From Methylococcaceae bacterium UBA2780 (lineage in GTDB: Bacteria > Pseudomonadota > Gammaproteobacteria > Methylococcales > UBA2780): a DNA stretch of 64,000 bases. The position numbers and the translations under genes are program-made. Below are positions 1 through 63,697 of the stretch, piece after piece; position 1 is the stretch's first letter; each line of letters begins with the position of its first letter. A model generated the notes under the pieces. It searched no databases, was not told where the DNA came from, and worked only from the letters and a program-made list of their open reading frames with translations. Location: contig DEIG01000008.1 of NCBI GenBank assembly GCA_002352345.1, positions 21,420 through 85,419 of the forward strand, read 5' to 3'.

Positions 1-816
1 CCAATGCGTCGCCGTTATAATACCTACGCAAACTACCGCCCCGTCTCTCTGCCAAAAGCACTCGCCCACTTCTCTCCATTAAAACCAGAAGTGATTGGTG
101 AAGGAATCGACCTGATTATGGTTCGCGAACTAGTGGGTGGGCTCTACTTTGGCGAAAAAGAGACTGGTATCAATGAAGCCGGCCTTCGTTATGTTAAAGA
201 GACGCTCGAATATGACGAAAAACAGATCACCCAAATCCTCCATCACGCCTTCAAATTAGCGAACAAACGCAAAAAAGTCCTTCACAACATTCACAAAAGT
301 AATGTTTTGAAATCTAGCGTGCTCTGGAACGAGATTCTCGAAGAGGTCGCCAAAGAATACCCAGAAGTTGAAGTGATCAACCTATTGGTTGATGCCGCAG
401 CCACGCTGCTCTGCCTAAAGCCCACACAGTTTGATGTAATGGTGATGGAAAATATGTTTGGCGACATCCTAAGTGACCAGGGCGGCGGCATTCTCGGCTC
501 TCTAGGCTTAATGCCTTCAGCTTGCCTAGGTGACGAAAAAGCCTACTACGAACCTTCACACGGTTCCGCACCCGATATCGCTGGCAAAAATATCGCCAAC
601 CCTTATTCAATGATTGGCTCTGTCGCCATGATGCTCGAAAACAGCTTTGGAATGGACCAAGAGGCCAAAAATGTCTGGGCAGCAATGCAGGCTGTTTTCG
701 CGGATGGTTATTCCACAGCCGACCTTTCTAAACCGGGCAGTGGCGTCAATATGATTGGCACCGATGCATTTGGTGACAAGGTCGTTGAGAAATTAAAGGC
801 AATGCCAATCGCTTAA
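1..816 (+). CDS. leuB: 3-isopropylmalate dehydrogenase, C-terminal ~270 aa (5' end outside window)
   Basis: The frame is open from the window edge. The translation carries isocitrate/isopropylmalate dehydrogenase blocks (IDLIMVRELVGGLYFG, MENMFGDILSDQGG, EPSHGSAPDIAGKNIANP). Other leu genes lie nearby. Confidence 0.9.
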   Translation, partial: PMRRRYNTYANYRPVSLPKALAHFSPLKPEVIGEGIDLIMVRELVGGLYFGEKETGINEAGLRYVKETLEYDEKQITQILHHAFKLANKRKKVLHNIHKSNVLKSSVLWNEILEEVAKEYPEVEVINLLVDAAATLLCLKPTQFDVMVMENMFGDILSDQGGGILGSLGLMPSACLGDEKAYYEPSHGSAPDIAGKNIANPYSMIGSVAMMLENSFGMDQEAKNVWAAMQAVFADGYSTADLSKPGSGVNMIGTDAFGDKVVEKLKAMPIA

Positions 817-844
817 TAAGCAGGATTTGTGCGAAAAATAAAAA

Positions 845-868
845 GGGGCCATCTAGGCCCCTTTTTTT
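845..868 (+). terminator. Rho-independent terminator after leuB
   Basis: Stem GGGGCC (845-850), loop atcta, stem GGCCCC (856-861), then a T7 run, 29 nt after the leuB stop. Confidence 0.75.
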
Positions 869-1106
869 ATCCCTCAAGAATAAACCAATTTCATTTTTCA
901 AAACAAACTTTGCCCCAACATCAATTTGCAGCCACTGATGAGCCATGTTTCTTTGAAAATTCAAGAAAATAACCCGACCACGGAACCGTTTTTCTTTTTA
1001 TCCATCTAAGAATTGAATGCTAGGGCTGGGTATAGCTAATGGACAAAAGTAGCGAGTAGCGTTCGTTTCAAACAACATTCCTGATCACCAGATAAAGGAG
1101 AACAAG

Positions 1107-1562
1107 ATGAACACAGAAGACAAACAAAAAAGCGTCGAAATTCTTAATGAAATCATGGAACTCGAACTGGCTGGCGTAGTGAGGTACACGCACTATTCGC
1201 TGATGGTGTACGGCTTTAACCGCATTCCGATCGTATCCTGGCTTAAAGGCAATGCAGATGAAAGCCTCTTACATGCTCATAGAGCCGGCGAAATGGTTAC
1301 CCTTCTGGGCGGCCACCCTTCGTTGAGCATAGGCCCTTTACTGGAGACGGCACAGCATGATGTTGGAGATATTCTTCGTGAAAGCCTTGAGCACGAAAAA
1401 ACGTCAATTTCTGCTTATTACCACTTACTTGAGCACAGCGAAGGCAAATCAACTCTGCTCGAAGAGTACGCTAGAGAGATGATCGTTGCTGAGGAGCTTC
1501 ACCTCGACGCGGTAAACAAAATGCTGCGCAAACCGGGAGATATTAGCGAATACGGCGGCTAG
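1107..1562 (+). CDS. Ferritin-like di-iron protein (bacterioferritin / Dps-like family)
   Basis: 151 aa with four-helix-bundle-like spacing of carboxylate/His pairs (ELELAG, DESLLHAH, ESLEHE, AEELH) typical of ferritin-like ferroxidase centres. AGGAG lies upstream of the ATG. Confidence 0.7.
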   Translation: MNTEDKQKSVEILNEIMELELAGVVRYTHYSLMVYGFNRIPIVSWLKGNADESLLHAHRAGEMVTLLGGHPSLSIGPLLETAQHDVGDILRESLEHEKTSISAYYHLLEHSEGKSTLLEEYAREMIVAEELHLDAVNKMLRKPGDISEYGG

Positions 1563-1715
1563 GTGGTGCAAAGGTTCATTAATTTTTAAAGCGGTCGAAC
1601 GTTTTATCTAGGCAAACAGTTGAAGGGGTATAACCACCCTTAATGAGTTCGCTATGCGAGACAAAATCTTGTTTAAAAGCAACCAATATAGGTAAAGATA
1701 ACGGAGACGATTAAT

Positions 1716-2081
1716 ATGAGACTTGATCATACCATCATCCCCTCTTCGGATAAGGAGGCGAATGCACGCTTCTATGCTGACTGTCTTGGCCTGAAATATT
1801 GCGGTGATTACACTCACTTTATTGTTGTCAAAATGAACTCCGGACTGAAATTACTATTTGATACAAGAAGTCAATTTGAGCCTCACCATTACGCCTTTCA
1901 ATGTAGCACTGAAGAATATGACGCCGTCCTCGCACGAATCAAAAAAAGTGCCCACCCATTTGGCGATAGCCCCGTAAACAGAACCAATTCCAGAGAATAC
2001 TTTTATGAGGGTGACAAAGGCTTCTATTTTGATGACAAAGATGGGCACATCCTCGAAGTGATCACGCAAGAAAACAGCTGA
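1716..2081 (+). CDS. VOC (glyoxalase/bleomycin-resistance/dioxygenase) family protein
   Basis: 121 aa. The N-terminus MRLDHTIIPSSDKEANARFYADCLGL and C-terminus DKDGHILEV fit the VOC beta-alpha-beta-beta-beta module pattern. Confidence 0.65.
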   Translation: MRLDHTIIPSSDKEANARFYADCLGLKYCGDYTHFIVVKMNSGLKLLFDTRSQFEPHHYAFQCSTEEYDAVLARIKKSAHPFGDSPVNRTNSREYFYEGDKGFYFDDKDGHILEVITQENS

Positions 2082-2118
2082 TCATTAAAATGTTTTCGAA
2101 TAGATACACGAGGCCTGA

Positions 2119-2508
2119 ATGAAAACAAAAAAGCGATTTAAACCGTTCTGGTACTGGAGTCTGCTAGCTTTATTGATTGCCCCCGGCACTTCGCTCAGTG
2201 AAAATATCAATGACGAAGATAAAGCCCTTTATGACATTCTTCCGGGGAAAACAGATGAACTCTGCATGACCCTGACACCTCAAGAGAGTTTAGAGTATTC
2301 CTTTGAAGCAACCGGCGCACTGCTCTTTAATATCCATTACCATCTTGCCCATAGAAGCTTCTACCCTGTTCACCAAAAACTTGCTTCAAAAGAAAAGGGG
2401 GGCTTCTCACCCAACTCAAAACAACGATACTGCCTCACGTGGCACAATGCCAACCGGCACCCGGTAGCAATTAAAGTTGAGCATAAAAAAATCCCTCGAA
2501 CGCAATAG
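2119..2508 (+). CDS. Small secreted hypothetical protein
   Basis: 129 aa with a signal-peptide-like N-terminus (KKRFKPFWYWSLLALLIAPGTSLS). No family recognised. A weak hairpin and T8 run follow at about 2513-2548. Confidence 0.55.
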   Translation: MKTKKRFKPFWYWSLLALLIAPGTSLSENINDEDKALYDILPGKTDELCMTLTPQESLEYSFEATGALLFNIHYHLAHRSFYPVHQKLASKEKGGFSPNSKQRYCLTWHNANRHPVAIKVEHKKIPRTQ

Positions 2509-2587
2509 GTTTGCCCCTGCATAATGTCGCTAGGGCCGTTTTTTTTATGACCTGTAGCCGATTCGGCTTTTTGACGAATCAAACCCC

Positions 2588-2956
2588 ATGATTTATTTAC
2601 TCATCGCAAACTTCGTCGTCATCTTCCACCTTGGATTCGTGCTTTTTGTATTATTCGGCGGATTACTAATTCAAAAATGGCGATGGCTTATTTTTCTGCA
2701 TATTCCCGCTGTAATATGGGGGGCACTCATTGAGTATCAAGGCGGACTGTGTCCACTCACCCCATTTGAACAAAAACTCCGACAAGCAGCCGATCAATCA
2801 GGCTATTCAGGTAGTTTTATCGAGCATTATATTTTGCCGATTTTGTACCCAGATTATCTCAACAAGGAGCTACAGGTTATCCTGGGATCAATCGTCATCA
2901 TCATTAACGTTGTTGTTTATGCATGGCTCGCAATACGATTTCTTGACGGCAAATAA
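2588..2956 (+). CDS. DUF2784-like small integral membrane protein
   Basis: 122 aa with 3-4 hydrophobic helices. The block GALIEYQGGLCPLTPFEQKLR resembles the DUF2784 family as I remember it. Confidence 0.55.
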   Translation: MIYLLIANFVVIFHLGFVLFVLFGGLLIQKWRWLIFLHIPAVIWGALIEYQGGLCPLTPFEQKLRQAADQSGYSGSFIEHYILPILYPDYLNKELQVILGSIVIIINVVVYAWLAIRFLDGK

Positions 2957-2959
2957 ACA

Positions 2960-3090
2960 GCCAACCTGCATTCTATGATTGGGCTGGATGCAATAATGCT
3001 TGAAAATAACTTTAAAATGGGAGGTGCCTAGGCACCGGTACATTTGGAGATAAAATTATTGAAAAATTAAAAGTAGTAATGGCTGCTTAA
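2960..3090 (+). pseudogene. leuB: Decayed duplicate of the leuB 3' end (ghost fragment)
   Basis: Hand alignment gives two collinear blocks. Block 1: 2960-3022 versus leuB 595-657, 44/63 nt identical (ANLHSMIGLDAIMLENNFKM versus ANPYSMIGSVAMMLENSFGM). Block 2: 3031-3090 versus leuB 757-816, 41/60 nt identical (GTGTFGDKIIEKLK versus GTDAFGDKVVEKLK), both ending in TAA in the same register. About 91 nt between the blocks are deleted. There is a premature TAG at 3029-3031 and a frame shift between the blocks. Confidence 0.8.
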
Positions 3091-3310
3091 ACTACCTTTC
3101 AATTTGGCCGATAGACACATAAATAAGCCTAGCAGCCATTGAACTTATTAATATCGAGATCAATCGCATCCAGCTCCATTCATTAATTGGTTAATCTTTG
3201 TCTGTTTTTTTTACATTTTCACCGCAATACTTGACGAGATACTAAATTAGTTTTTTTACAATTCGGAATAATTTTTATAAAACATCCACTTATAGACACA
3301 AAAATAATGT

Positions 3311-3326
3311 GGGCACCAAAATTGCT
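3311..3326 (+). promoter_or_regulatory. Putative sigma-54 (-24/-12) promoter of the PEP-CTERM gene
   Basis: gGGCAC-caaaa-TTGCt matches TGGCAC-N5-TTGC(A/T) in 9 of the 10 core positions with exact spacing. It sits 53 nt upstream of the ATG at 3379. AAGGAG Shine-Dalgarno at 3364-3369. Confidence 0.55.
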
Positions 3327-3378
3327 TATACACAACTGTGGTTATTTTAATTAACACAAAAGTAAGGAGTTTTTAAAA

Positions 3379-4137
3379 ATGAAAACAGTAAAAATAACAC
3401 TAAAAGTCGGTGCAGCAGTAGCTGCATTGACATTTGGAGCGACCGCAAACGCGACCATACTCACAGTATTTGATGGAATCACAGCAGGCGTATCCTCTTT
3501 TGATTCGACAGTAACAGGTGCAGGTGGAACCGTATCATCTGATGTTTGGACCACATTTGGTAGTGGCGCAAGCGTTGACCGAGGCGACTACACAGTCACC
3601 AACACCGATGGTGGGTCTATATCCACGCAAAATTATGGGGATATGTCTGGAAAGGTGATCGGTATTAACCCCGCAGGTGGAGGATCAAACCCTCGCACCA
3701 ACCCACTGGATTATATAAACAGTGGACTCACCTTTACCTTTGACAACCCTATTAACTCTTTCGGCTTCGAAGTTGGTGATTGGGCAACATGCTGTTTCGA
3801 TCCAACTACTGACCTGTTTATCTCTTTTGATGGTGCCACCCCAATTCAAGTGGCATCAGCAAATAGCAGTTCTGATGGGCTATTTCCGTCGCAAGATGAT
3901 GGCAGGAATGTTTTTGAGATCTTTGTTGCAGCATTCGATGATACAGGCGACTTTACTCAAATTTCATTTTGGGGAAATGGTATCGGTGAATTTCTTGTTG
4001 CTGGCGGACAAGTTCGCTATGCTCTACTCAATCAGGGCAGTCTACCTGGCGGAAACGTTCCAGAGCCCGCGACTTTAGCGCTTTTAGGTCTTGGTTTAGC
4101 CGGAATGGGTTTTTCACGAAAAAGAAAGAAAGCTTAA
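3379..4137 (+). CDS. PEP-CTERM sorting-domain secreted protein
   Basis: N-terminal signal peptide (MKTVKITLKVGAAVAALTFGATANA). The C-terminus VPEPATLALLGLGLAGMGFSRKRKKA gives the PEP motif, a TM helix and a basic tail. Confidence 0.85.
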   Translation: MKTVKITLKVGAAVAALTFGATANATILTVFDGITAGVSSFDSTVTGAGGTVSSDVWTTFGSGASVDRGDYTVTNTDGGSISTQNYGDMSGKVIGINPAGGGSNPRTNPLDYINSGLTFTFDNPINSFGFEVGDWATCCFDPTTDLFISFDGATPIQVASANSSSDGLFPSQDDGRNVFEIFVAAFDDTGDFTQISFWGNGIGEFLVAGGQVRYALLNQGSLPGGNVPEPATLALLGLGLAGMGFSRKRKKA

Positions 4138-4161
4138 ATCTTTGTATTTTAGGTTTTAAAA

Positions 4162-4191
4162 AGCCAGCTGGTTTTTCAGCTGGCTTTTTTT
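4162..4191 (+). terminator. Rho-independent terminator after the PEP-CTERM gene
   Basis: Stem AGCCAGCTG, loop gttttt, stem CAGCTGGCT, then a T-run. Confidence 0.8.
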
Positions 4192-4267
4192 GCTCTAAAA
4201 ATAAGCCAGCCTTCCTAATTTAACCACGGTCTAGGGGCTTTTAAGTACTGTAAATAACTCTGACAAA

Positions 4268-5818
4268 CTACTCTATTCCAGCACCCTGCTCATGCAGCTG
4301 AATATTAATCATTCGTAATGCTGCAAGCACCGAGGCAAAAACCTGATTAGAGTGAACGCCGCGTGTTTTGCGCTGTGTTTTACCACAATCCCAAGTAATC
4401 ACACATTCAGTTAAAGCGCTTGTATGGCCACCTTTAGGAATCCTTACTTCATAATCAACCAGACCTGGAAGCGCATAACCATAGCCTTTCAACGCCTTAT
4501 TAACTGCATCGATAAAGGCATCAAAACCACCATTTCCTGAACCCGACACACTATGCTTCTCACCCTTTATCTCTACTTGAATACTTGCGACTGACTCCAA
4601 ATCCAAGCTGCTGGTAATTGAGCAGTTAATCAATTTGATATGTTGGTAATTGGTGCTTTCCAGCACATCGGCAATGATAAATGGCAGATCTTCTGTGGTA
4701 ATTGTCTGCTTGGTATCTCCAAGTTTGACTATTCTCGCCAAGACTTTTTGCTGCTCTTCTTCTGAAAGTGTTAACCCAAGTTTCTCGAGATTCTTTTTAA
4801 GCGAGGCTTTGCCACTCATTTTTCCCAGTGCATAGCTTCGTGTTCTGGCAAAGCGTTCCGGGCTGAGTTTACTTTCGTACAAGCCCCCTTTTTGGTCTCC
4901 ATCGGCATGAATACCGGCTGTTTGGGTAAAGACATCCGCCCCGATGATCGGTGCATTCGCTGCAACCCATTTGCCTGAAAAGTTCTCAACCATATTGCTC
5001 AATCGAACAATATGGCTCTCATCGATAGAGAGCTGCATGCCCATTTTATCGCGCAAAACTGCTGTGACCTGTGAAACAGAAGCATTCCCTGCCCGCTCAC
5101 CGAGGCAATTAACCGTGCAGTGAACCGCGCTGACCCCAGCTTTAACCGCGGCCATCACGTTAGCCGTCGCCAAGCCATAGTCATTATGGGGGTGAAAATC
5201 GAATTGCAACTCTGGATATCGACTACACATATCGCTTAGGCTCTCAAAAACCTCATCGGGCGACATCACACCTAATGTATCCGGAAGCATAAAGTGGTTA
5301 ATCCCCGCATTCCTAAGCCTATCCATCAACTCATAGACATAATCACGGCTATCAACGTAACCATTCGACCAATCTTCTAGATAAACATTTACAGAAAGTC
5401 CTTTCTCTTGGGCATAAGCAACCGTTTTAAGAATTTCTTGAGCATGCTGCTCAAGATTTTTCCCAAGTTGCTCGCGACAATGCTTTTCACTTCCTTTTGT
5501 AAGCAGGTTGATCACTTGACCACCGGCATCGGCTATCCAATCAACGCTGCGTGTGCCATCAACAAAACCTAAGACCTCAACTGCATCACCAAACCCTTCA
5601 CTCCGCGCCCAGTCGTTTATATTTCGAACTGCCTCTTTTTCGCCCTCTGAAACGCTTGCAGAAGCCACTTCGATTCGGTCAATTTTAAGAGATTCCAGCA
5701 ATGCTTTGGCAATACCCACCTTCTCTGCTGGAGAGAACGAGACACCTTGTGTCTGCTCTCCGTCGCGGAGTGTGGTATCCATTAACTGGATTTTTCTGGG
5801 TTCTGCCGGCATCACCAA
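4268..5818 (-). CDS. LeuA-family synthase of the (R)-citramalate synthase type (CimA-like; may be annotated as 2-isopropylmalate synthase)
   Basis: 516 aa. LMDTTLRDGEQ and HPHNDYGLATAN mark the HMGL-like barrel, and a C-terminal LeuA-type regulatory domain is present. Blocks LGFVDGTRSVDWI, VYLEDWSNG, FTQTAGIHADGDQKGGLY, RSYALGKMSGKAS and EDLPFIIADV match my recollection of Leptospira-type CimA better than E. coli LeuA. TTG start at 5818 (GAGGA 7 nt upstream), or alternatively ATG at 5812. Confidence 0.8.
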   Translation of the reverse strand: MVMPAEPRKIQLMDTTLRDGEQTQGVSFSPAEKVGIAKALLESLKIDRIEVASASVSEGEKEAVRNINDWARSEGFGDAVEVLGFVDGTRSVDWIADAGGQVINLLTKGSEKHCREQLGKNLEQHAQEILKTVAYAQEKGLSVNVYLEDWSNGYVDSRDYVYELMDRLRNAGINHFMLPDTLGVMSPDEVFESLSDMCSRYPELQFDFHPHNDYGLATANVMAAVKAGVSAVHCTVNCLGERAGNASVSQVTAVLRDKMGMQLSIDESHIVRLSNMVENFSGKWVAANAPIIGADVFTQTAGIHADGDQKGGLYESKLSPERFARTRSYALGKMSGKASLKKNLEKLGLTLSEEEQQKVLARIVKLGDTKQTITTEDLPFIIADVLESTNYQHIKLINCSITSSLDLESVASIQVEIKGEKHSVSGSGNGGFDAFIDAVNKALKGYGYALPGLVDYEVRIPKGGHTSALTECVITWDCGKTQRKTRGVHSNQVFASVLAALRMINIQLHEQGAGIE

Positions 5819-5870: not shown

Positions 5871-6482
5871 TTACGCCCAAAGCCAAGGATAAAGTGTTTT
5901 ATGTTTATCTTCGTATTGGCTGATTTTCTCTTCATGCTTAAGCGTTAGGCCAATATCATCAAGTCCTTTCGAAAGGTTCTCTTTACGGAATGGATCAATT
6001 TCAAACTTGAAGCCATTGCCAGCAGGCGTGATCACATCTTGATTTTCAAGATCAATCGTAAATTGCACCCCTTCATTCGCTTCAATTTCTGCCATCAACG
6101 CATCCAGCTGCGCTTTGGTCGCAACAATAGGCAAGATGCCATTTTTAAAGCAGTTGTTATAGAAGATATCGGCATAGCTGGTCGAAATGATTGTATTAAA
6201 ACCATAATCTTCAATTGCCCATGGCGCATGTTCGCGCGATGAACCACAGCCAAAATTATCGCCAACAACCAGAATTTTTGATCCCTTAAAGGCAGGCTTG
6301 TTCAGCTCAAAATCGAGGTTATCGCTAGTATCTTCGTTATAGCGCCAGTCGTGAAAAAGATGAACTCCAAAACCGCTACGTTCTACTTTTTTCAAAAACT
6401 GTTTTGGGATAATTTGATCAGTATCGACATTGCTGCGATTCATCAATGCCGCAATACTTTCGTGTTTTGTATACGCTTTCAT
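5871..6482 (-). CDS. leuD: 3-isopropylmalate dehydratase small subunit
   Basis: Aconitase swivel-domain small subunit (DTDQIIPKQFLK, GDNFGCGSSREHA). I moved the start to the ATG at 6482 (MKAYTKHES), 16 nt after the leuC stop. The longer track ORF overlaps leuC. Confidence 0.9.
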   Translation of the reverse strand: MKAYTKHESIAALMNRSNVDTDQIIPKQFLKKVERSGFGVHLFHDWRYNEDTSDNLDFELNKPAFKGSKILVVGDNFGCGSSREHAPWAIEDYGFNTIISTSYADIFYNNCFKNGILPIVATKAQLDALMAEIEANEGVQFTIDLENQDVITPAGNGFKFEIDPFRKENLSKGLDDIGLTLKHEEKISQYEDKHKTLYPWLWA

Positions 6483-6498
6483 AAATAATCCAAATACT

Positions 6499-7893
6499 TT
6501 ATTTGCTGATATCGACAAAATGACCCGCTGCTGCTGCCGCTGCTGCCATTGCTGGAGAAACGAGGTGCGTGCGTCCGCCTTTACCTTGACGACCCTCAAA
6601 GTTTCGATTTGAAGTTGAGGCACAACGTTCTTTATCTTTAAGTTCGTCACCATTCATCGCCAAACACATTGAGCAACCCGGTTCGCGCCACTCCCACCCG
6701 GCTTCGGTGAAAATTTTATCCAGTCCTTCTTCTTCTGCCTGCTCTTTCACATGATAAGAGCCGGGAACCGCAATTGCAGTTACGCCCTCTGCAACCTGCG
6801 TACCTTTAGCAACATTTGCTGCCGCACGAAAATCCTCAATACGGCCATTTGTGCAAGAGCCAACAAAGACATAATCAATCTTAATATCGGTCATTTTTGT
6901 GCCGGCTGTTAGGCCCATGTAGTTCAATGCACCTTCACATGCCTGCTGCTGAATTTCACTCTCAAAACTTTCTGGTGAAGGGACAACATCATTTACCGCA
7001 ACAACCTGCTCGGGTGACGTACCCCAAGTGACTTGTGGTGAAATCTCAGCAGCATCAAGAACCAGCTCTGCATCAAATTCAGCTCCTTCATCACTCGCCA
7101 TTGATCCCCAATGGGCAACTGCCTGCTCCCAGTATTCTTCAGATGGCGCAAACTCTTTGCCTTTCAAGAATTCATAAGTCTTCTCATCGGGAGCAACCAT
7201 GCCGGCACGTGCGCCCGCTTCAATCGCCATATTACAGAGTGTCATGCGGCCTTCCATGCTTAGCGACTTGACTGCATCGCCTGCAAATTCAAAGACATAA
7301 CCTGTTCCGCCTGCTGTGCCTGTTTTACCAATAATTGCCAGCGCAATATCTTTCGCAGTACAAGCATCCGATAATTCGCCATCAACACGGATTATCATTG
7401 TTTTAGACTTCTTTTGAGGCAGTGTTTGGGTTGCCATCACGTGCTCAACCTCAGATGTTCCAATACCAAAGGCCAGCGCACCAAATGCCCCGTGTGTTGC
7501 CGTATGGCTATCACCACAGACAACCACCATGCCCGGGTGGACAAACCCATGTTCTGGAACAACAATATGAATCACACCATTATCAGGGCTTTTCATATCG
7601 TAAAGATTCAAGCCGTTCTCTTCGCAGTTTTCAGCCATTGTTTCGATCTGTTTTTTAGCAATCGGATCAGCAATGGGCAGGTCGCGATTTTTAGTCGGAA
7701 CACAGTGATCCATCGTCGCCAAAATACTGTGAACATTTCGCACCTTACGGTTTGAGTTCCGCAACCCTTCAAACGCCTGAGGACTGGTTACCTCATGCAT
7801 TAGGTGGCGATCAACATACAATAATGGGGCCTGTCCAGACTCTTCATGAACAAAGTGGCTATCCCAAATTTTTTCATACATCGTTTTTTTCAT
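6499..7893 (-). CDS. leuC: 3-isopropylmalate dehydratase large subunit
   Basis: 464 aa. Aconitase-family Fe-S ligand blocks ([28 protein letters not shown]). Confidence 0.95.
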
Positions 7894-8195: not shown

Positions 8196-9308
8196 ATGTT
8201 GAAAAAAACAGTCTTCGCTCTGCTTGCTGCTTCCCTTTTGGTTGGCACAATTATCTATATAAAGCTCGGCCAATTTGGCGCAATGGAAGAGGCCAAACAA
8301 AGCATGGTGCCCCCCCCACAAACCGTGACCGCCATGCACATAAAAGAAGAGCAGTGGGAACAAATCATTTCTGCTACTGCCACTGTAACAGCGGTGCAAG
8401 GTGTCGAAATAAGCGCCGAAACTGGCGGAAGAGTGGTTTATATAGGCTTTAAATCTGGTTCAACCGTTAAGAAAGGCGACCTCCTTCTTAAACTCGATAC
8501 CGCAAGTGAGGATGCCCAGCTCGTCTCAGCAGAGGCCTCAGTTATACTTGCTAACGCAAACCTCAAGCGGATTAGCAGACTCAGAAAGCAAAATGTCGCC
8601 TCTCAAGATGCGCTTGATAGCGCGAAAGCGAAAGCAAAAGAAGCTAAAGCACAGGTACAAAACATGCTTGCTTTAATCGCTAAAAAGACAGTTCGCGCCC
8701 CTTTTTCTGGTCGACTTGGATTACGGCTAATTAACCTTGGTGAAATTTTAAAAGAGGGCGCTCCAATCGTCTCCTTGCAAACGCTTGATCCAATATATGT
8801 CGACTTCTCCATTCCACAAAAATCACTGCCAGCCCTCAAAACAGGGCTCGAAGTGCGTGTTGCGGTTGATGCCGCACCCGGCAAAATCTTCAGCGGCAAA
8901 ATAATGGCTAAAAATCCTGACGTAGATCTCGCGACACGTAGCGTAAGGGTTCGTTCACAAATTGCCAATTCTGATGAAATCCTGCGAGCTGGAATGTTTG
9001 CAACAGCAAGCGTGGTGATGGCTGGAAAACAAACTGTCTTGCCTGTCGTATCGACCGCAATATCATACGCAACCTTTGGGGACTCAGTCTTTGTGATCGA
9101 AAAACAGGGCGATGAGCAGCTACTTCGCCAGCAATTTGTCCGCTTAGGTGAAACACGGGGCGACTATGTTGATATCGTCGATGGATTAAAGGCAGGTGAA
9201 ACGGTTGTTACAAGCGGCCTGTTCAAGTTTCGCAGTGGCATGAAAGTGGTTATTGATAATACGCTAGCCCCTAAAGCCAGTCTTACGCCCAGCCCTGTAG
9301 ATTCTTAA
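8196..9308 (+). CDS. RND efflux periplasmic adaptor (membrane fusion protein)
   Basis: N-terminal anchor helix, a coiled-coil hairpin region and beta-barrel blocks typical of the HlyD/AcrA family. It lies immediately upstream of the RND pump. I chose the ATG at 8196 (MLKKTVFALLAASLL); the upstream extension looks non-coding. Confidence 0.85.
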   Translation: MLKKTVFALLAASLLVGTIIYIKLGQFGAMEEAKQSMVPPPQTVTAMHIKEEQWEQIISATATVTAVQGVEISAETGGRVVYIGFKSGSTVKKGDLLLKLDTASEDAQLVSAEASVILANANLKRISRLRKQNVASQDALDSAKAKAKEAKAQVQNMLALIAKKTVRAPFSGRLGLRLINLGEILKEGAPIVSLQTLDPIYVDFSIPQKSLPALKTGLEVRVAVDAAPGKIFSGKIMAKNPDVDLATRSVRVRSQIANSDEILRAGMFATASVVMAGKQTVLPVVSTAISYATFGDSVFVIEKQGDEQLLRQQFVRLGETRGDYVDIVDGLKAGETVVTSGLFKFRSGMKVVIDNTLAPKASLTPSPVDS

Positions 9309-9320
9309 AATAGCCTTTTC

Positions 9321-12300
9321 ATGAGCAATACATTTACAGATCTGTTTATTCGGCGGCCCGTTCTGGCTATCGTCGTCAACCTCATTATTGTTATTGCCGG
9401 GCTTAACGCATGGAATTCATTGAGCGTAAGACAATACCCGCTTAGTGAAAACGCATCTGTTCAAATATCAACTGTTTATGTTGGCGCTAGCGCTGAGCTT
9501 GTTCGTGGCTTTATCACGACACCTTTGGAGCATGCCGTCGGGGCTGCGGAAGGCATTGACTATGTCGAGTCTAAAAGCTTGCAGGGGATTTCAATTATCA
9601 CTGCACGGCTCAAGCTTAACTATGACTCAACCAAGGCTCTCGCTGATATTTCATCCAAGGTAGACCAAGTTCGAAATGACCTACCTACCGAGGCCGAAGT
9701 GCCCGCCATCAGTGTATTATCGGCAGACTCCGAATTTGCTGCGGCCTATTTAAGTTACTCATCTGACATTCTCTCCCAAGAGCAGATAACCGATTACCTT
9801 GCCCGCGTTGTACAGCCTCGTCTATCTGCAATCACCGGTGTGCAGCGCATTCAGATTTATGGCGCCAGAACATTTGCAATGCGTATTTGGCTTAAACCTG
9901 AACGCATGGCTGCACTGGGCATCAGCCCCTCACAAGTGCAGCAGGCATTAGCTGCCAACAACTATCTGGCCGCGATTGGCAGCACTAAAGGTGCACTCGT
10001 ACAGACTAAGTTAGCTGCCAATACCGACCTTCATACAGAAGAGGAATTTCGAGATTTAATCATTTTCCAAAAAGATGACACCATTATTCGTCTACAGGAT
10101 ATTGCAGAAATCAAACTGGGCTCCGAAGATTATGATACGCAGGTGCGATATTCCGGACATACCGCCGTTTTTGCCGGTGTATTCCCCCAGCCTAATGCCA
10201 ATATTATTGATGTAATCGACGCTGTACGCGTAGAGCTAGGAAAACTCGAACACGACTTGCCGCAAGGCCTTGATGCAAGTATTGGCTACGATGCTTCGGC
10301 CTATGTAAGTGATGCAATTCACGAAGTCACACGCACTTTGATCGAAACATTACTTATCGTGATTGTCGTTATTTTTCTCTTCCTCGGCTCATATCGCTCC
10401 GTACTGATTCCGGTGATGGCCATCCCCGTTTCGCTTATTGGCGGTATCTTTTTGATGCAACTGTTTGGCTTTACACTCAACCTGTTAACACTGCTTGCGA
10501 TCGTTTTATCGGTCGGCCTAGTGGTCGATGATGCGATCGTTATGGTTGAGAATGTCGAGCGACACCTGCGCGAGGGGCGTACACCAAAAGAGGCCGCAAT
10601 ACTTGGTGCCCGTGAACTGGTTGCACCCGTCATCGCGATGACAGTCACGCTGGTGGCCGTTTACATTCCGGTTGGTCTGCAGGGTGGCTTAACGGGCGCA
10701 CTGTTCCGAGAATTTGCATTTACACTTGCTGGCGCCGTAACCATATCGGGGATCGTCGCACTCACCTTGTCCCCAACCATGTCTGCCAGCTTACTTCGCA
10801 GCGCAGAAGATGAAGAGCGCGGCCTAACAGGCTGGGTCAATCACCTATTCGATCGAATCCGAATCGCTTACGGTCGATTGCTCGGCCACACGCTAAAAGC
10901 TAGACCTGCCGTCTATCTAATTTGGATTGTGATCAGCTTATGTACCATTCCAATGTACTTAATGTCTCCAAACGAGCTAGCGCCCTCCGAAGACCAGAGT
11001 GTGCTATTTGGCATCATCAATACTTCTGCTAATGCCACCACAGATCAGAATGCAGTTTATGCTGAAGCAGCCGAAAAAATCATGCTCGACACAACGGAAT
11101 CAGCACTCACATTTCAGCTCCTCTTTCCTCCATCCATCGGGGCAACAATTGGAGCCGATGGATTCAGTGGTATGGTGGTAAAGCCCTGGGCTGAACGTGA
11201 CCGAAGCGTCAAAGAAATCTTGCCTGAAATACAGGCAAAAGTTTCAAAAATCCCCGGCATTCAAACACTGATGACATTACCGCCAGCACTACCGGGTGGT
11301 AGCAATTTTCCTGTCGAATTTGTTATCACTTCGACTGCCGATTCAAAAGAGTTGCACAAAATTGCTCAAGCGCTACAAAAAAGAGCGCAAGAAAGCGGAC
11401 TCTTCCCCTTTCCTCCCATCATCGATATGAAATTAGATCAGCCACAAGATACTCTGCTGTTTGATCGAGATAAACTTGCAGCGCTTGGCCTAAACCTGTC
11501 TCAAGTAGGTGCCAATCTTGCTGTCGCTACCGGAGGAAATTTCGTCAACCGTTTCAATATGGAGGGCCGAAGCTACAAGGTTATTCCACAAATACAACGC
11601 GCTGACCGCTTAAATAGCGAGCAACTACGTGATATTTACATCCCTGCAGGAGATGGACAAATGGTGCCGCTATCATCATTTGCTCATATCGAACATGGGG
11701 TTGCCGCCCGATCACTAAACCGATTCCAGCAACTCAATTCGGTCAAACTTTCAGGCATGACTACTCGCACACTGGATGATGCGCTAATTTTCCTCGAAGA
11801 GGCAGCACGTAAGCTCCTGCCACCAGGATACAGTTTTGACTATACGGGTGAATCCCGCCAACTACGGAAAGAGGGCAATAAATTTATTCCTGCCTTTTCG
11901 CTGGCGGTTATTTTAATTTTTCTTGTCCTGGCCGTGCAGTTCAACTCATTTCGTGATCCATTCGTGATCCTCGCCGGTTCTGTACCTTTAGCAATGTTTG
12001 GTGCGTTGATTTTCACTGTACTCAAAATACCCGATCCCAACACCCCATTCTGGACAAATGGCTGGACCACAACCATGAATATTTATGCCCAAGTTGGTTT
12101 AGTCACCCTCGTTGGATTGATTGCAAAAAATGGCATTTTGATTGTTGAGTTTGCAAACAAACTTCAAGAGCAGGGCGTCAGTAAAGTCAACGCCATAAAA
12201 GAGGCGGCAATGACACGATTGCGTCCGGTATTGATGACAAGCATTGCAACCATTGCTGGCCATTTCCCGTTGGTGCTAGTGACAGGAGCCGGAGCCGCCG

Positions 12301-12428
12301 CAAGAAACTCTATCGGTTTAGTGCTCGTTGGAGGCATGGCAATTGGTACGCTATTCACACTCTTTGTTGTTCCATCGCTATACATACTGATAGCAAAGAA
12401 GAGAAATAGAGAAGATCAAAAAAGTTAA
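9321..12428 (+). CDS. RND efflux transporter, inner-membrane permease (AcrB/MdtC-like)
   Basis: 1035 aa. N-terminus FIRRPVLAIVVNLIIVIAG, the duplicated 12-TM architecture, and VGLVVDDAIVMVENVERH are all typical of the AcrB family. Confidence 0.92.
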   Translation: MSNTFTDLFIRRPVLAIVVNLIIVIAGLNAWNSLSVRQYPLSENASVQISTVYVGASAELVRGFITTPLEHAVGAAEGIDYVESKSLQGISIITARLKLNYDSTKALADISSKVDQVRNDLPTEAEVPAISVLSADSEFAAAYLSYSSDILSQEQITDYLARVVQPRLSAITGVQRIQIYGARTFAMRIWLKPERMAALGISPSQVQQALAANNYLAAIGSTKGALVQTKLAANTDLHTEEEFRDLIIFQKDDTIIRLQDIAEIKLGSEDYDTQVRYSGHTAVFAGVFPQPNANIIDVIDAVRVELGKLEHDLPQGLDASIGYDASAYVSDAIHEVTRTLIETLLIVIVVIFLFLGSYRSVLIPVMAIPVSLIGGIFLMQLFGFTLNLLTLLAIVLSVGLVVDDAIVMVENVERHLREGRTPKEAAILGARELVAPVIAMTVTLVAVYIPVGLQGGLTGALFREFAFTLAGAVTISGIVALTLSPTMSASLLRSAEDEERGLTGWVNHLFDRIRIAYGRLLGHTLKARPAVYLIWIVISLCTIPMYLMSPNELAPSEDQSVLFGIINTSANATTDQNAVYAEAAEKIMLDTTESALTFQLLFPPSIGATIGADGFSGMVVKPWAERDRSVKEILPEIQAKVSKIPGIQTLMTLPPALPGGSNFPVEFVITSTADSKELHKIAQALQKRAQESGLFPFPPIIDMKLDQPQDTLLFDRDKLAALGLNLSQVGANLAVATGGNFVNRFNMEGRSYKVIPQIQRADRLNSEQLRDIYIPAGDGQMVPLSSFAHIEHGVAARSLNRFQQLNSVKLSGMTTRTLDDALIFLEEAARKLLPPGYSFDYTGESRQLRKEGNKFIPAFSLAVILIFLVLAVQFNSFRDPFVILAGSVPLAMFGALIFTVLKIPDPNTPFWTNGWTTTMNIYAQVGLVTLVGLIAKNGILIVEFANKLQEQGVSKVNAIKEAAMTRLRPVLMTSIATIAGHFPLVLVTGAGAAARNSIGLVLVGGMAIGTLFTLFVVPSLYILIAKKRNREDQKS

Positions 12429-59754: not shown

Positions 59755-60294
59755 CTATTCTCCAGAATAGATGATTTCAACACGGCGATTTTGCTCCCAT
59801 GACAGTTCATCATGGCCAAAGCTAACCGGCTTTTCTTCCCCATAACCGATTACTTGAATTTGGGATGGCGAAACATTCTGAAGCCTCATTAAGTCGGCGA
59901 CAGTATTCCCACGTTGCTCACTCAATGCAACGTTGTATTCTCTAGAACCTCGCTCATCTGCATAGGCCTCTAGGATGACGTTTTTGCTTGGATTCTCAGC
60001 AAGATATGCAGCGTGAGCAGCAATTACAGGAAGGTGCTCGTCCGCCACTTCGCTGCTATCAAATGCAAAATGGATAACTCTTTTAGAAAGCAGACTTGCT
60101 GGATTTAACAGAGGATCACCTGTGTAAACCTCTCCACCTTCAATTCCGGTAGTCGATACACCTGACCCATTCCCGTAACCTCCACCCTCTTCTGTAGCTG
60201 TAGCAGAGCTAGCCCCGCCTATACCTAACGTTTCGCAACCAGACAAGACAAACAGACCAACAAAAATCAATAGTGCCGCTTTCAACTGCTTCAT
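59755..60294 (-). CDS. pal: Peptidoglycan-associated lipoprotein
   Basis: Lipobox LSGC. OmpA-like C-terminal domain (FAFDSSEV, EAYADERGSREYNVALSEQR, NRRVEI). Confidence 0.95.
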   Translation of the reverse strand: MKQLKAALLIFVGLFVLSGCETLGIGGASSATATEEGGGYGNGSGVSTTGIEGGEVYTGDPLLNPASLLSKRVIHFAFDSSEVADEHLPVIAAHAAYLAENPSKNVILEAYADERGSREYNVALSEQRGNTVADLMRLQNVSPSQIQVIGYGEEKPVSFGHDELSWEQNRRVEIIYSGE

Positions 60295-60311
60295 TATATT
60301 TCCTCTTTCTT

Positions 60312-61601
60312 TTATTTAAATGGTGACCAAGCTGGATCTCGAACTTCGCCACCTTTCATAACCAAATTCTGATGGACCCGCCCATCAGCAGAGACCGCTG
60401 CCAACAGCCCCCTTTCCCCTTTTTTTGCCGCATAGAGAATCATACTTCCATTCGGCGCAAAGCTTGGGGACTCATCAAGCTTACCGTTAGTCAGAACCTG
60501 AAGAATACCCGAATCAAGCTCTAGCACGGCAATCTGATATGCGCTCCCCTGCCTGTGAATCATTGCCAGACTTTTTCCATCCGGTGAAAATACAGGTCGA
60601 GCATTATAGCTCCCCTCATAGGTCAACCGCTTCGCTTTACCACCCTGAACCGGGATCTGATAAATCTGTGGCCTACCCCCCCGATCAGAGGTATAGGCAA
60701 TCATCTTTCCATCTCTAGACCAGCTCGATTCAGTCTCAATAGCATAACCTTTCGTTAGCTGACGAAGTGAGCCAGTAATCAGATCCAAGATGTATATATC
60801 AGGACTGCCACCAACTGAAAGCGTCATCGAAAGTTTACTTCCATCTGGCGACCAAGCAGGTGCACCATTAATACCAGGGGCGGAAGAGACCCGCTCCCTT
60901 TTTCCGCTGGAAATAGTCTGAACATAGATTGCTGAATGGCGCCCCTCAAAAGAGACATAAGCAATTTTTTCGCCATTTGGAGACCAAGCGGGCGACATAA
61001 TCGGTTCAGATGAGGTTGTAATCGTCTGAGGATTAAAACCATCAGCATCGGCCACTTGCAAACGATACTGTGGCTGGCTATTTTTATTACGAACCACCGT
61101 CACATAAGCGATTCGGGTTGAAAAAGCGCCTTTCTGTCCCGTCAACTGTTCGTAGACTATATCGCTGATTCTGTGAGCAGTTTGCCTAAGTGCCTTAGCG
61201 CTAGAAGGCATGCTATAACCGGTCAACTGTTCCCCTTTATAAACATCAAAAAGTTGAAACTGGATCACAAACCGGCCTGCTCCGGTTTCTCTGACCTGAC
61301 CAATTAAGAGATTATCCTGCCCCAAAGCCTGCCAATTACGAAAGCGAATTTTTGTCGCATCAGTAGGTTTTGTCAGCATATCTCGTTCGGGCAGTGCTTT
61401 AAATCGGCCCGAGCGGCTCAAATCCGCCGCAACAACAGCACCAATATCAAGCGGAGCCTCAGCTGCCATACCCTGCCAACCAAAAGGAACAATCGCAATA
61501 GGCGCCGCCCCTTCAATACCTTCGGTTATTTCAATTTCAAGTGCCGCAGAAAAAACTGATGTCGGTAGAAAAATCAACAATAGAAATAATCGTCTCAGCA
61601 T
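60312..61601 (-). CDS. tolB: Tol-Pal system beta-propeller protein TolB
   Basis: 429 aa. Signal peptide and repeated propeller blades (PAWSPDG / PVFSPDG / PSFAPNG). Confidence 0.95.
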
Positions 61602-61604
61602 AAA

Positions 61605-62588
61605 TTACTCTTTGGGTATAAAAATCAAGTCAAGCGTTCTAAAGTAGCTAAACAGCCCGGGGTCATTAGGAATGGGTAAAGGTGACGCTTTTAGTACAGC
61701 CACCTCAACCGACCGATCGAATAGTTGATCACCACTGCTCTTTACCACTCGCGCATCCATTACACTACCACCCGCAATTAGCTTAACTCGGATTTTACAT
61801 GATAAACCAACTGTGGATGTAGAGGGTTTCAGCCAACTACGTTGAATCTTTTGGCGAATAACATCTCGAAAGCTAGCGACCGCTTGCTGCGCTTTTCTTT
61901 CTGCTTCCATCTGCTGCTTTAGCGCTAATTCGCGTGCTTTGCGCTCTTTTTCCGCCTTTTCTTTCGCCAGCTTTTCCTGCCTTTTCTTTTCAGCTAGCGC
62001 TTTGGCTTTTTCCGCTTCAGCTTTTTCCTTTTTTGCAATCTCCGCCTTTCTTCTCTTCTCTGCCTCAATCTTTTTCTTTTCAGCCTTTTTCTTTCGAGCC
62101 ACCTCAGCTTTACGCCTCTTTTCCGCTTCAGCTTTTTGACGCTTCTGATTAGCCAATTGCTTCTCTTTCTTTAGCTTATCAAGCTTCTTCTTTTCGGCCT
62201 GTTTCTCTCTTTTGAGCTTTTCTAGCTTAAGTGCCGCTGCTTTTTCCTTCGCTCTGTTTTTCGTCGCCTGCTCTTTTGCTCGCTTTTGCTCTTGAACTCT
62301 TTTCTGCTTCAGATCAGCCAACCGCTTCTCTTCTTTTCGTTGTGCTTTTTTAAGACGCGCCTGCTTGGCCTTCTCACCCTGTTTTTTATCTATCTCCTGC
62401 TGCTTCAATTTCTGAAGCTCAGCCAATACTTTCGATTCATCAATAACTGTTGCCTGCACCACGTCTGGCACCGGTCTAGGCACTATCTTTTTCTTTTCAA
62501 ACTCTATATTTGCCAGCAGCAAGACTGCTAGAACAGCATGAAAAGCGAGTGACAGCAAAAGAGGTAAGCGATATTGCCCTTTCATCAC
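61605..62588 (-). CDS. tolA: Tol-Pal system protein TolA
   Basis: N-terminal TM helix, a long Lys/Glu/Ala-rich helical domain II, and a C-terminal TolA domain III (SGDQLFDRSVEVAVLKASPLP). Confidence 0.9.
   Translation of the reverse strand: MMKGQYRLPLLLSLAFHAVLAVLLLANIEFEKKKIVPRPVPDVVQATVIDESKVLAELQKLKQQEIDKKQGEKAKQARLKKAQRKEEKRLADLKQKRVQEQKRAKEQATKNRAKEKAAALKLEKLKREKQAEKKKLDKLKKEKQLANQKRQKAEAEKRRKAEVARKKKAEKKKIEAEKRRKAEIAKKEKAEAEKAKALAEKKRQEKLAKEKAEKERKARELALKQQMEAERKAQQAVASFRDVIRQKIQRSWLKPSTSTVGLSCKIRVKLIAGGSVMDARVVKSSGDQLFDRSVEVAVLKASPLPIPNDPGLFSYFRTLDLIFIPKE
61905..62420 (-). repeat. Low-complexity Lys/Glu/Ala-coding repeats (TolA domain II)
   Basis: Degenerate reiterations of aaagc/gaaaa-type codons encode KAEKKKIEAEKRRKAEIAKKEKAEAEK. 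On the plus strand they appear as ttt/ctt-rich repeats and generate spurious antisense ORFs. Confidence 0.8.
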
Positions 62589-62594
62589 AACCTG

Positions 62595-63023
62595 TTATTG
62601 AACCGTTTCAGGAGACTGAGTCATTAATCCAACATTTTCTACGCCGGCACTTTTTAACACCGCCATTACCGTAACAACCTTGCCGTAATCGACATCCATG
62701 TCGCCTCTAATCAGAACAGCAGTCTTTGGTTTATGGCGTAAAACCGCAGCAACTCTAACGGCGACTAACTCAAGTTCAACAGGCCTATTCGTCTCTTCAC
62801 CAACATCCATATAGTATGAACCACTAGCATCAACGGTAATGACTAAAGGCGGCTCTTGATCTTGTGGTAACTCTTTGGCATCTGCTTGAGGAAGATCGAC
62901 CTCAACACCTTGCTGAATCAATGGTGCCGTGATCATAAAGATAATCAATAAAACCAATGTCACATCGATATAGGGGACAACATTGATCTCGGCCATCGGC
63001 CTACGCTTAATGCGACGGCTCAT
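62595..63023 (-). CDS. tolR: Tol-Pal system protein TolR
   Basis: 142 aa ExbD/TolR-family protein (MAEINVVPYIDVTLVLLIIFMITAP). Confidence 0.93.
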   Translation of the reverse strand: MSRRIKRRPMAEINVVPYIDVTLVLLIIFMITAPLIQQGVEVDLPQADAKELPQDQEPPLVITVDASGSYYMDVGEETNRPVELELVAVRVAAVLRHKPKTAVLIRGDMDVDYGKVVTVMAVLKSAGVENVGLMTQSPETVQ

Positions 63024-63697
63024 TTCAGTCGGGCCTGCCGCTGAAGCAGGCTGATGAACTCTTCCATAAAGGTGTCGTAACGATTTGCTAATCGCTCAAC
63101 ATTTGTTGAATAGCGGTTATAGGCGATAACCGCAGGGATGGCTGCAAACAGCCCCATTGCGGTTGCGACCAGCGCCTCAGAAATTCCCGGTGCGACCAGC
63201 GCTAATGTCGCCTGCTTTGTATTACCCAGCGCACTAAAGGAATTCATAATGCCCCAAACCGTCCCAAAAAGTCCGACATACGGACTTGTTGAACCAACAG
63301 TTGCAAGAAAAGGGAGCCGTGCATCAAGCCGATCCATCTCTCTTGAGAAGGCAACGCGCATTGCTCGGTGCGAACCTTCTACAATGTCAGCCGCATCAAC
63401 ATCTTTTTCCTGTTTTAACTTTGCAAACTCTCTGTATCCTGCCAAAAAAATATTCTCTATCCCTTCACTGGTATAACGATCCGCTGAGAGCTGCTTATAT
63501 AGTTGCGCAAGATCAACACCAGACCAAAACCGCTCTTCAAACTGATCAGAAACTAAAAGCGCCTGCTTTAGCTCTTTCCGTTTTGAGAAGATAAATGTCC
63601 ATGAAGCAACTGAAGCGATCAACAACAGAAGCATCACCAGCTGAACGATCAGACTGGCGTTGATAATCAACTCGAATATCGATAGTTCAGAACCCAT
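63020..63697 (-). CDS. tolQ: Tol-Pal system protein TolQ
   Basis: 225 aa MotA/TolQ/ExbB-family protein (TSPYVGLFGTVWGIMNSF, ALVATAMGLFAAIPAVIAYN). Overlaps tolR by 4 nt. Confidence 0.95.
   Translation of the reverse strand: MGSELSIFELIINASLIVQLVMLLLLIASVASWTFIFSKRKELKQALLVSDQFEERFWSGVDLAQLYKQLSADRYTSEGIENIFLAGYREFAKLKQEKDVDAADIVEGSHRAMRVAFSREMDRLDARLPFLATVGSTSPYVGLFGTVWGIMNSFSALGNTKQATLALVAPGISEALVATAMGLFAAIPAVIAYNRYSTNVERLANRYDTFMEEFISLLQRQARLK

Follow-up and report, generated by a model that had tools for sequence, protein, structure and literature searches.

We analysed a stretch of 64,000 nucleotides (nt) from Methylococcaceae bacterium UBA2780 (assembly GCA_002352345.1, contig DEIG01000008.1, positions 21,420 to 85,419), referred to here as the window. 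At its left end lies leuB, the gene for 3-isopropylmalate dehydrogenase, and downstream lies a leuA-type 2-isopropylmalate synthase gene. The gap between them holds a cassette of four genes, a second copy of the leuB 3' end and a gene for a PEP-CTERM-anchored protein. A first reading of this DNA, made from the letters alone (the sequence-only reading), had described the second copy as the decayed end of a displaced leuB. We find that it is a genuine truncated pseudogene remnant, here called the leuB ghost, and that it stands exactly at the seam between two gene modules that also occur in other lineages.

The features of the locus are collected in Table 1. The 270 codons of the live leuB that fall within the window end in KAMPIA, and the full gene, present on an identical contig (L106), encodes 368 amino acids (aa). 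LeuB is 94% identical to its closest proteins, which come from Cycloclasticus-like metagenome bins, and 88-91% identical to proteins labelled Cycloclasticus or Methylococcaceae. The organism belongs to the uncultured Cycloclasticus-like gammaproteobacteria. The leuA gene, convergent with leuB, is the conserved gene that bounds the variable gap on the right, and leuD and leuC follow beyond it. Pfam agrees with the sequence-only calls of the ferritin-like, VOC, DUF2784, PEP-CTERM and LeuA-type genes, and the terminator that had been placed after leuB was recovered as a hairpin at ~840-866 in a terminator scan. The ferritin-like protein is ~81% identical to Methylobacter proteins, which are encoded there by lone genes beside glyQ, and homologues of the DUF2784 protein are 119-126 aa long with variable tails. 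A search of 5.8 billion protein clusters for homologues of the 129-aa small protein returned only the protein itself; the one other trace of this orphan (2119-2508) is a truncated stub on the contig L102, described below. The AT-rich spacer after the ghost probably holds the promoter of the PEP-CTERM gene.

Table 1. Features of the leuB-leuA locus, in window coordinates
Feature	Position	Strand	Evidence or remark
Live leuB (3-isopropylmalate dehydrogenase)	1..816	+	Pfam Iso_dh, E = 2e-85; cut by window start
Live leuB segment repeated in the ghost (repeat copy 1)	583..816	+	Alignment, repeat search
Terminator hairpin after live leuB, GC-rich, T-runs on both sides	~840..866	.	Terminator scan, inverted repeat
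Ferritin-like protein gene, 151 aa, D module	1107..1562	+	Pfam Ferritin
VOC/glyoxalase-family gene, 121 aa, D module	1716..2081	+	Pfam Glyoxalase
Small protein gene, signal-like N-terminus, 129 aa, D module	2119..2508	+	No Pfam match
DUF2784 membrane protein gene, 122 aa, full length, last of D module	2588..2956	+	Pfam DUF2784, E = 8e-37
Ghost leuB block 1, equivalent to live 583-657	2948..3022	+	52/75 nt identical; left edge uncertain by ~15 nt
Translation of ghost block 1: GK, stop, TANLHSMIGLDAIMLENNFKMG	2948..3022	+	
Deletion joint within ghost, 8 nt in place of live 658-756	3023..3030	+	
Ghost leuB block 2, equivalent to live 757-816	3031..3090	+	41/60 nt identical; other frame than block 1
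Translation of ghost block 2: GTGTFGDKIIEKLKVVMAA, stop	3031..3090	+	Stop in same register as live copy
AT-rich spacer, ghost stop to PEP-CTERM gene	3091..3378	+	Counterpart of the L081 leuB-PEP-CTERM spacer
PEP-CTERM-anchored protein gene, 252 aa, R module	3379..4137	+	Pfam PEP-CTERM
Bidirectional terminator hairpin, between PEP-CTERM gene and convergent leuA	4147..4200	.	Terminator scan, inverted repeat
leuA-type 2-isopropylmalate synthase gene	4268..5818	-	Pfam HMGL-like, HCS_D2, LeuA_dimer; synteny

A truncated second copy of the leuB 3' end

The two copies of the leuB end point the same way, as direct repeats separated by 2.3 kb, and have an overall nucleotide identity of 68%. Ungapped counting gave 44/63 identical positions between 2960-3022 and live leuB 595-657, and 41/60 between 3031-3090 and 757-816, exactly the figures that had been counted by hand. 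The first block reaches 12 nt further to the left (2948-2959 against 583-594, 8/12), and the ghost starts at about 2948, so that it takes in the end of the DUF2784 gene (two codons and the stop, GGC AAA TAA). The DUF2784 gene has borrowed its stop codon from the ghost, and 2948-3090 should be annotated as a leuB pseudogene fragment. A further extension to ~2934 (CGATTTC against CGATATC, with a 2-nt gap) was dropped as statistically meaningless.

The similarity stands well above background. Gapped local alignment of 2940-3120 against 1-820 scored 36.2, compared with a mean of 12.1 for shuffled sequences (standard deviation 1.9, maximum 20) and with a best score of 25 when 652 other segments of the window were put through the same test. 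In a repeat search no direct-repeat family was larger than those formed by the two blocks (73 nt at 71% and 41 nt at 78%), and tblastn matched both of them to LeuB, at residues 194-217 (62% identity) and 251-270 (55%). A leuB 3' remnant downstream of the live gene is thereby borne out by nucleotide alignment, repeat search and tblastn alike. The edges of the repeat are abrupt, and identity falls to the random level on either side (9/30 upstream of 2948 and 13/60 downstream).

The ghost lacks at least the 5' 582 nt of leuB and carries in-frame TAA and TAG stops and a frameshift. Where the live gene has the 99 nt of 658-756 the ghost has 8 nt, 91 nt fewer. Block 1 is in frame with the TAG at 3029-3031, block 2 lies in a different frame, and the terminal TAA falls in the same register in both leuB copies; the sequence-only reading had stated all of this. 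The GC content of the ghost is 36%, against 47% in the corresponding live segment, and the differences between the two comprise 25 changes from GC to AT and 11 from AT to GC. This low GC content and excess of GC-to-AT differences point to decay without constraint.

The Jukes-Cantor distance between ghost and live copy is 0.41, while live leuB genes of different lineages are ~0.19 apart at the same positions. On this scale the ghost has gained roughly 0.2-0.4 substitutions per site since its inactivation, a large fraction of the per-lineage divergence between the window and its nearest sequenced relatives. The event is old, one of the two possibilities (an old event or a distant donor) that had been drawn from the ~30% divergence of the copies. 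The ghost is 56-70% identical to the leuB of all relatives and about equally distant from each (mostly 65-70%). An attempt to name a donor lineage from these similarities was abandoned, since a sequence equidistant from every leuB is uninformative.

The leuB-leuA gap in related lineages

In seven Cycloclasticus genomes, the convergent leuA-leuD-leuC genes follow within ~60-90 nt of the leuB end and the gap is empty, and it is also empty in the close relatives L085/L086 and L111/L112 (empty-gap loci: L001-L004, L009, L023, L038, L085, L111). The four cassette genes and the PEP-CTERM gene were absent within 8 kb in all 80 genome loci. Given the empty gap in relatives, the 3.45 kb between leuB and leuA in the window is DNA added to the ancestral state, and the view of the cassette as an insertion holds. 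Other close relatives have different fillings, with small open reading frames (ORFs) of unknown nature in L083 and another ORF in L088. In L087 the gap contains, at 9155-12361, pieces of a type I restriction-modification methylase, with HsdM_N and N6_Mtase in separate ORFs, followed by an AAA_22 ATPase and a 185-aa ORF on the opposite strand before the contig stops short of leuA; this content may belong to a module for transposition or defence. In L085 the C-terminus of LeuB is extended (376 aa, ending in PPRHPSHAAEY) and its gene overlaps the 3' end of convergent leuA by ~95 nt (8685-8779), so that the intergenic terminator region has been lost entirely.

We scanned 88 loci for leuB ghosts: the relatives L001-L083 and L085-L088, together with L084, which is a duplicate contig of the window. 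Ghosts bounding an insert were found only in the window and L084 and in none of the relatives, and no integrase-bearing insert within leuB was found in any of the 88. After the window and L081, discussed below, all secondary ghost hits across the loci were at noise level. We also considered whether the cassette had been taken over as a conserved donor operon, and rejected this: none of 13 metagenome DUF2784 loci lies beside leuB or leuA, the metagenome DUF2784 relatives are unlinked to leuB, leuA or the other cassette genes, the ferritin-like gene is a lone gene in Methylobacter, and the secreted protein is without homologues.

The gap has two alternative fillings, which we call the D and R modules, each with its own leuB 3' end. 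The D module consists of a leuB ending in MPIA, a terminator (at ~840-866 in the window) as its first element, and the genes for the ferritin-like, VOC, secreted and DUF2784 proteins. The R module consists of a leuB end, a spacer of ~300 nt, the PEP-CTERM gene and a terminator, after which comes leuA. The window carries D and R in tandem with the ghost exactly at the seam, and the leuB end that belongs to R is the ghost itself.

The R module stands beside a live leuB in L081 (GCA_053986525.1), to which the window is most closely related as judged from the 5' part of leuB (83.4% nt identity). There the order is live leuB, terminator, a 319-nt spacer and the PEP-CTERM gene, and the PEP-CTERM gene of the window shares 75% aa and 74% nt identity with this gene. 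The L081 spacer has conserved blocks in common with window 3091-3378 (local alignment score 21.5, against shuffles with mean 11.4, standard deviation 1.7 and maximum 20.5), while as a control the spacer that follows the live leuB in the window, 817-1106, scored 13 against it. The hairpin at 4147-4200 is likewise conserved after the PEP-CTERM gene in L081. Since both spacer and gene of L081 are homologous to those on the ghost side of the window, R is one unit. The sequence-only reading had anticipated relatives in which the PEP-CTERM gene directly follows leuB, and L081, with its homologous spacer, is such a relative.

The D module was found on L102, a contig of 1,461 nt (Logan SRR28272308) that came to light through its homologue of the ferritin-like protein (P0121, 95% aa identity). 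L102 carries a leuB end (FGDKVVEKLKAMPIA, then the stop), the terminator, the ferritin-like gene, the VOC gene, a stub of the secreted-protein gene and the leuA 3' end. It is 79-83% identical in nucleotides to window 769-2186 and has neither the ghost nor the PEP-CTERM gene. The terminator found after its leuB is homologous to that of the window, and terminator plus spacer (817-1106) align with a score of 60. For the last 48 nt of the live leuB in the window, L102 is the closest sequence (43/48, all others at most 39/48), and no MPIA C-terminus occurs among the best 120 LeuB database matches. With the cassette standing after an MPIA-type leuB in L102, D is a second unit. The VOC gene of L102 carries an in-frame stop, and of the secreted-protein gene only the first ~34 codons are left, fused ~30 nt from the leuA stop; this is a decaying D-type gap in another lineage.

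L081 also contains a compound scar of its own, at 10279-10403 of contig JBMXIK010000044.1, between the PEP-CTERM gene and a DUF2784 pseudogene. Its first part, immediately after the PEP-CTERM terminator, is a leuA ghost: 47 nt from the 3' end, on the minus strand (MINIQLHEVGGARG, ending in a stop). The second part, head to head with the first, is a leuB ghost, 45 nt from the 3' end (GDKIVEKLRVMPIA and a stop, of the MPIA type), and has kept its own terminator. Beyond the double ghost lie the frameshifted DUF2784 gene, to which the DUF2784 gene of the window is 73% identical in nucleotides, a Phd/YoeB pair and the live leuA. The leuA ghost reaches a score of 31.5, where shuffled sequences reach at most 16.5, and over all loci no secondary hits are stronger than these two adjacent ghosts, the window's own excepted. 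L081 has R followed by D and the window D followed by R, and in both the truncated gene ends lie exactly at the seam. Polarity was also sought in 21 nt shared by the L081 leuA ghost and the L102 leuA end, but one mismatch against two leaves too few sites, and this line was given up.

The joints of the two scars differ: in the window the break lies at leuB nt 583, and in L081 codon -16 of leuA is fused to codon -15 of leuB. Different joints with no apparent shared motif argue against a site-specific enzyme. The leuA-end/leuB-end junction of L081 has the form expected where a circle cut out of the leuB-leuA gap has closed. Together with the opposite module orders and the presence of DUF2784 beside the seam in both lineages, this circle-like joint hints at a dedicated and recurrent shuffling of cassettes in the gap of this clade, by an integrase-independent or trans-acting "gene-end attachment". 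One form of it would have small circles, bounded by leuB and leuA 3' ends, reinserted through short gene-end homologies. We regard the dedicated process, and this form of it, as long shots.

The two-module arrangement bears on other explanations as well. A local tandem duplication, here beginning at leuB nt 583, whose second copy was then deleted except for the leuB fragment, would account for two like-oriented repeats at a distance of 2.3 kb. We give this scenario hardly any credence. Only the 234-nt leuB segment is repeated and no trace of a second cassette copy is present. The scenario needs a second, implausibly precise deletion, from the ghost stop to the spacer orthologous to that of L081. 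The sequences after the two leuB copies are unrelated (13/60), each matching a different module elsewhere, and tandem duplication leaves unexplained why there are two types of leuB end, each tied to its own module in other lineages.

In Escherichia coli, the e14 element and phage 21 integrate in icd and leave the icdC pseudogene (Hill et al. 1989; PMC13626634). An integrase-driven element that entered the leuB 3' end in the same style, and then lost its integrase and most of its genes to leave four cargo genes, would produce a similar architecture, in which the live gene runs into the insert, the insert supplies a 3' end that keeps a dehydrogenase working, and the old C-terminal fragment lies at the far end (icd/icdC; PMC13626634). 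The enzymes encoded by leuB and icd are members of one family (Pfam Iso_dh), and the gap after leuB is variable in many relatives, such as L087 and L083. Nevertheless, we consider such an element very improbable. From ~8 kb upstream of the window start to position 12,000 we found no recombinase, integrase, excisionase, transposase or phage gene, in line with the earlier remark that no mobility gene remains, and no tRNA gene was found at the locus. The two copies share no exact match of more than 8 nt, too short to reveal an attachment (att) core, although this is weak evidence, as decay could erase a core. Neither DUF2784 nor VOC has relatives in a viral contig collection, and the same insert did not recur at the leuB target in the 88 loci scanned. 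In L102 the cassette is plain chromosomal DNA between leuB and leuA, and in L081 the leuA end, leuB end and terminator are chromosomal donor DNA with no element end. The prophage e14 encodes its own integrase, has a defined att core and is excised on SOS induction, and the window shows none of these; and while icdC is nearly identical to icd, the leuB ghost is 30% diverged and internally deleted.

Proposed recombination route and order of arrival

Of the two mechanisms offered by the sequence-only reading, an element aimed at the leuB 3' end has nothing to support it here, and recombination with a divergent donor fits best. From what is directly seen (a sharply bounded repeat, a gap that was empty in the ancestral state, two module types elsewhere and the reciprocal scar in L081) we infer both a recombination route and an order in which the modules arrived. 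The best explanation, and in our judgement a probable one, is one-ended homologous recombination in which an R-type chromosome received a D fragment. DNA of a related lineage carrying the other gap allele would have used homology at one end and been joined illegitimately at the other, either through a single crossover of a circular fragment or through homology-facilitated illegitimate recombination (HFIR). The fragment, extending from leuB nt ~583 to the end of the DUF2784 gene and probably circularised, would have entered by a single crossover inside leuB that joined the incoming 3' end to the working gene and duplicated 234 nt. The resident 3' end (583-816), now without its 5' part, would have moved 2.1 kb downstream, and would then have decayed through the 91-nt deletion, the stops, the frameshift and a drift towards AT. 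One boundary of the insert does lie in leuB homology (live 583-816 and ghost 2948-3090), and the far joint is abrupt, with 9/30 identity just upstream of 2948. Donor-type alleles exist at the same locus, with D alone in L102 and R beside the live leuB in L081. In this Cycloclasticus-like clade the leuB-leuA gap is, we propose, a hot spot of recombination.

The sequence-only reading had taken the cassette as the incoming part and the resident leuB end as the part left to decay. The insertion stands, but the arrangement in L102 would equally suit the reverse polarity. We lean slightly towards the original polarity, with D arriving second: the content of R is the same in the window and L081, which would suggest vertical descent, and the content of D differs, which would suggest separate donors.

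Several observations weigh against this explanation. The order of arrival is an argument from parsimony. A duplication of 234 nt needs a circular intermediate or break repair and is not textbook HFIR, which is an insertion plus a deletion. Strain variants were sought by exact-protein matches of the DUF2784, secreted and PEP-CTERM proteins, and all five contigs with exact cassette proteins were 100% identical to the window; they showed no polymorphism between strains, and neither a donor nor an unaltered recipient of this species came to light. A breakpoint in leuB near nt 583-595, which the sequence-only reading had led us to look for, gave no signal: between nt 4-582 and nt 583-813, none of 85 relatives showed a significant shift in identity. 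The largest was in L002 (77.7% to 83.6%, on 225 nt), and identity to L081 was 83.4% in the 5' part and 81.8% in the 3' part. Sliding-window identity along leuA showed no shift either. Four-fold degenerate sites are near saturation against every relative (0.94-1.45 substitutions per site), so no crossover is detectable in leuB or leuA, and the ghost is equidistant from all leuB genes.

The same mechanism could have acted with the opposite polarity. A D-type ancestor with a native cassette would have received an R-type fragment running from leuB ~583 through the spacer, the PEP-CTERM gene and the terminator into leuA, with homologous recombination in leuA and an illegitimate joint after DUF2784. 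This would be classical HFIR with no duplication, and the ghost would be the frayed edge of the fragment that came in, without ever having functioned in this genome. The topology is simpler, as HFIR normally yields an insertion plus a deletion without duplication (PMC3240628). L102, with the D module directly after an MPIA-type leuB, no ghost and no PEP-CTERM gene, speaks for this version, as do the closeness of the last 48 nt of live leuB to L102 (43/48) and the lack of a breakpoint inside leuB. The composition of the cassette is like that of the rest, and the stretch of ghost plus PEP-CTERM gene is among the 4.4% most deviant segments of the same length. That deviance, however, comes mostly from 430 nt of AT-rich non-coding DNA, and the codon usage of the PEP-CTERM gene is normal (z = -1.1). 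There is no breakpoint in leuA either, and in L081, which the 5' part of leuB places closest (83.4%), the PEP-CTERM gene stands beside leuB; two independent introductions of a module with the same content, into the lineages of the window and of L081, would be needed. We consider the opposite polarity possible but rather unlikely.

The GC content, tetranucleotide composition and codon usage of the cassette are ordinary for the window, and for the cassette genes and the PEP-CTERM gene the values stay within its normal range (|z| <= 1.14). The comparison of codon usage and k-mers suggested by the sequence-only reading therefore revealed no anomaly. This ordinary composition is consistent with a related donor and an old event, and an event of such age would have left no compositional signal.

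Other observations concern the surroundings of the gap. An Rfam scan of 600-4500 found no family above threshold, only terminator-like noise. A weak match to the sok antitoxin RNA at 4133-4286 on the minus strand (26 bits, against a gathering threshold of 59; E = 0.005) lies over the bidirectional terminator that separates the PEP-CTERM gene from leuA and is almost certainly hairpin noise. Downstream, the mechanically called leuD ORF at 5871-6653 (260 aa) overlaps the end of leuC, while the call on the identical contig is 203 aa, equivalent to 5871-6482 by the offset to L106; the long N-terminal extension is thus probably untranslated. The most deviant tetranucleotide composition in the window belongs to 2.1-kb segments starting at 60,251-61,751 (window ~60250-63900).

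Relation to known recombination products and genomic islets

Illegitimate recombination anchored by homology at one side is documented in bacteria, and its illegitimate joints typically carry 3-10 bp of microhomology. HFIR of foreign DNA has been described in Acinetobacter, Streptococcus pneumoniae, Pseudomonas stutzeri and E. coli, and in E. coli single crossovers of circular (truncated) molecules, which outnumbered true HFIR events 56 to 4, produced duplications of the homologous segment of 109-950 bp (PMC3240628). The scar in the window resembles such Campbell-type and HFIR products in having one homologous and one probably illegitimate joint, with ~1-2 kb of non-homologous DNA inserted, and its duplication of 234 bp lies within the range reported for truncated circles. 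Unlike the laboratory cases, which have known parents, the event in the window is ancient. In laboratory HFIR the inserted DNA is foreign, whereas here the "foreign" DNA is an alternative allele of the same chromosomal gap.

A second parallel is found in polymorphic toxin loci. HFIR has been proposed to explain the displaced effector 3' ends in type VI secretion system (T6SS) arrays of Vibrio cholerae (PMC5361080). As in these arrays and in the orphan 3' modules of Rhs and contact-dependent inhibition (CDI) loci (PMC5361080), new DNA in the window would have entered through a conserved upstream anchor, modules are stacked, and the resident 3' end would have been displaced downstream and kept as a truncated remnant. 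In T6SS, Rhs and CDI loci, however, the genes encode polymorphic toxins under diversifying selection and the variable 3' end is itself the payload, while in the window the anchor is a housekeeping gene and the cargo consists of small, unrelated genes. Only two modules are stacked in the window, compared with the successive stacking seen in the toxin loci.

The alternation of gap contents has a parallel in the flexible genome of marine bacteria. Between their conserved core genes these organisms carry flexible genomic islets, of a replacement and an additive kind, which are exchanged through the flanks. The leuB-leuA gap is similar in that alternative gene sets occupy the same position between conserved flanks in related lineages. 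A clean double crossover between flexible islets is scarless, whereas the exchange in the window was imprecise, and both alleles have been kept together with a ghost gene end.

The scar in the window is a new example of the known products of one-ended recombination, and involves no new mechanism or element. It offers a clean natural record, from uncultured marine bacteria, of small gene sets being added between housekeeping genes without mobile-element machinery. A gene end supplied by the donor keeps the essential gene intact, and the other copy becomes a datable fossil. The paired reciprocal scars in two lineages record recurrent, imprecise one-ended exchange at a single gap, and this bears on how flexible islets may grow by addition, beyond replacement alone.

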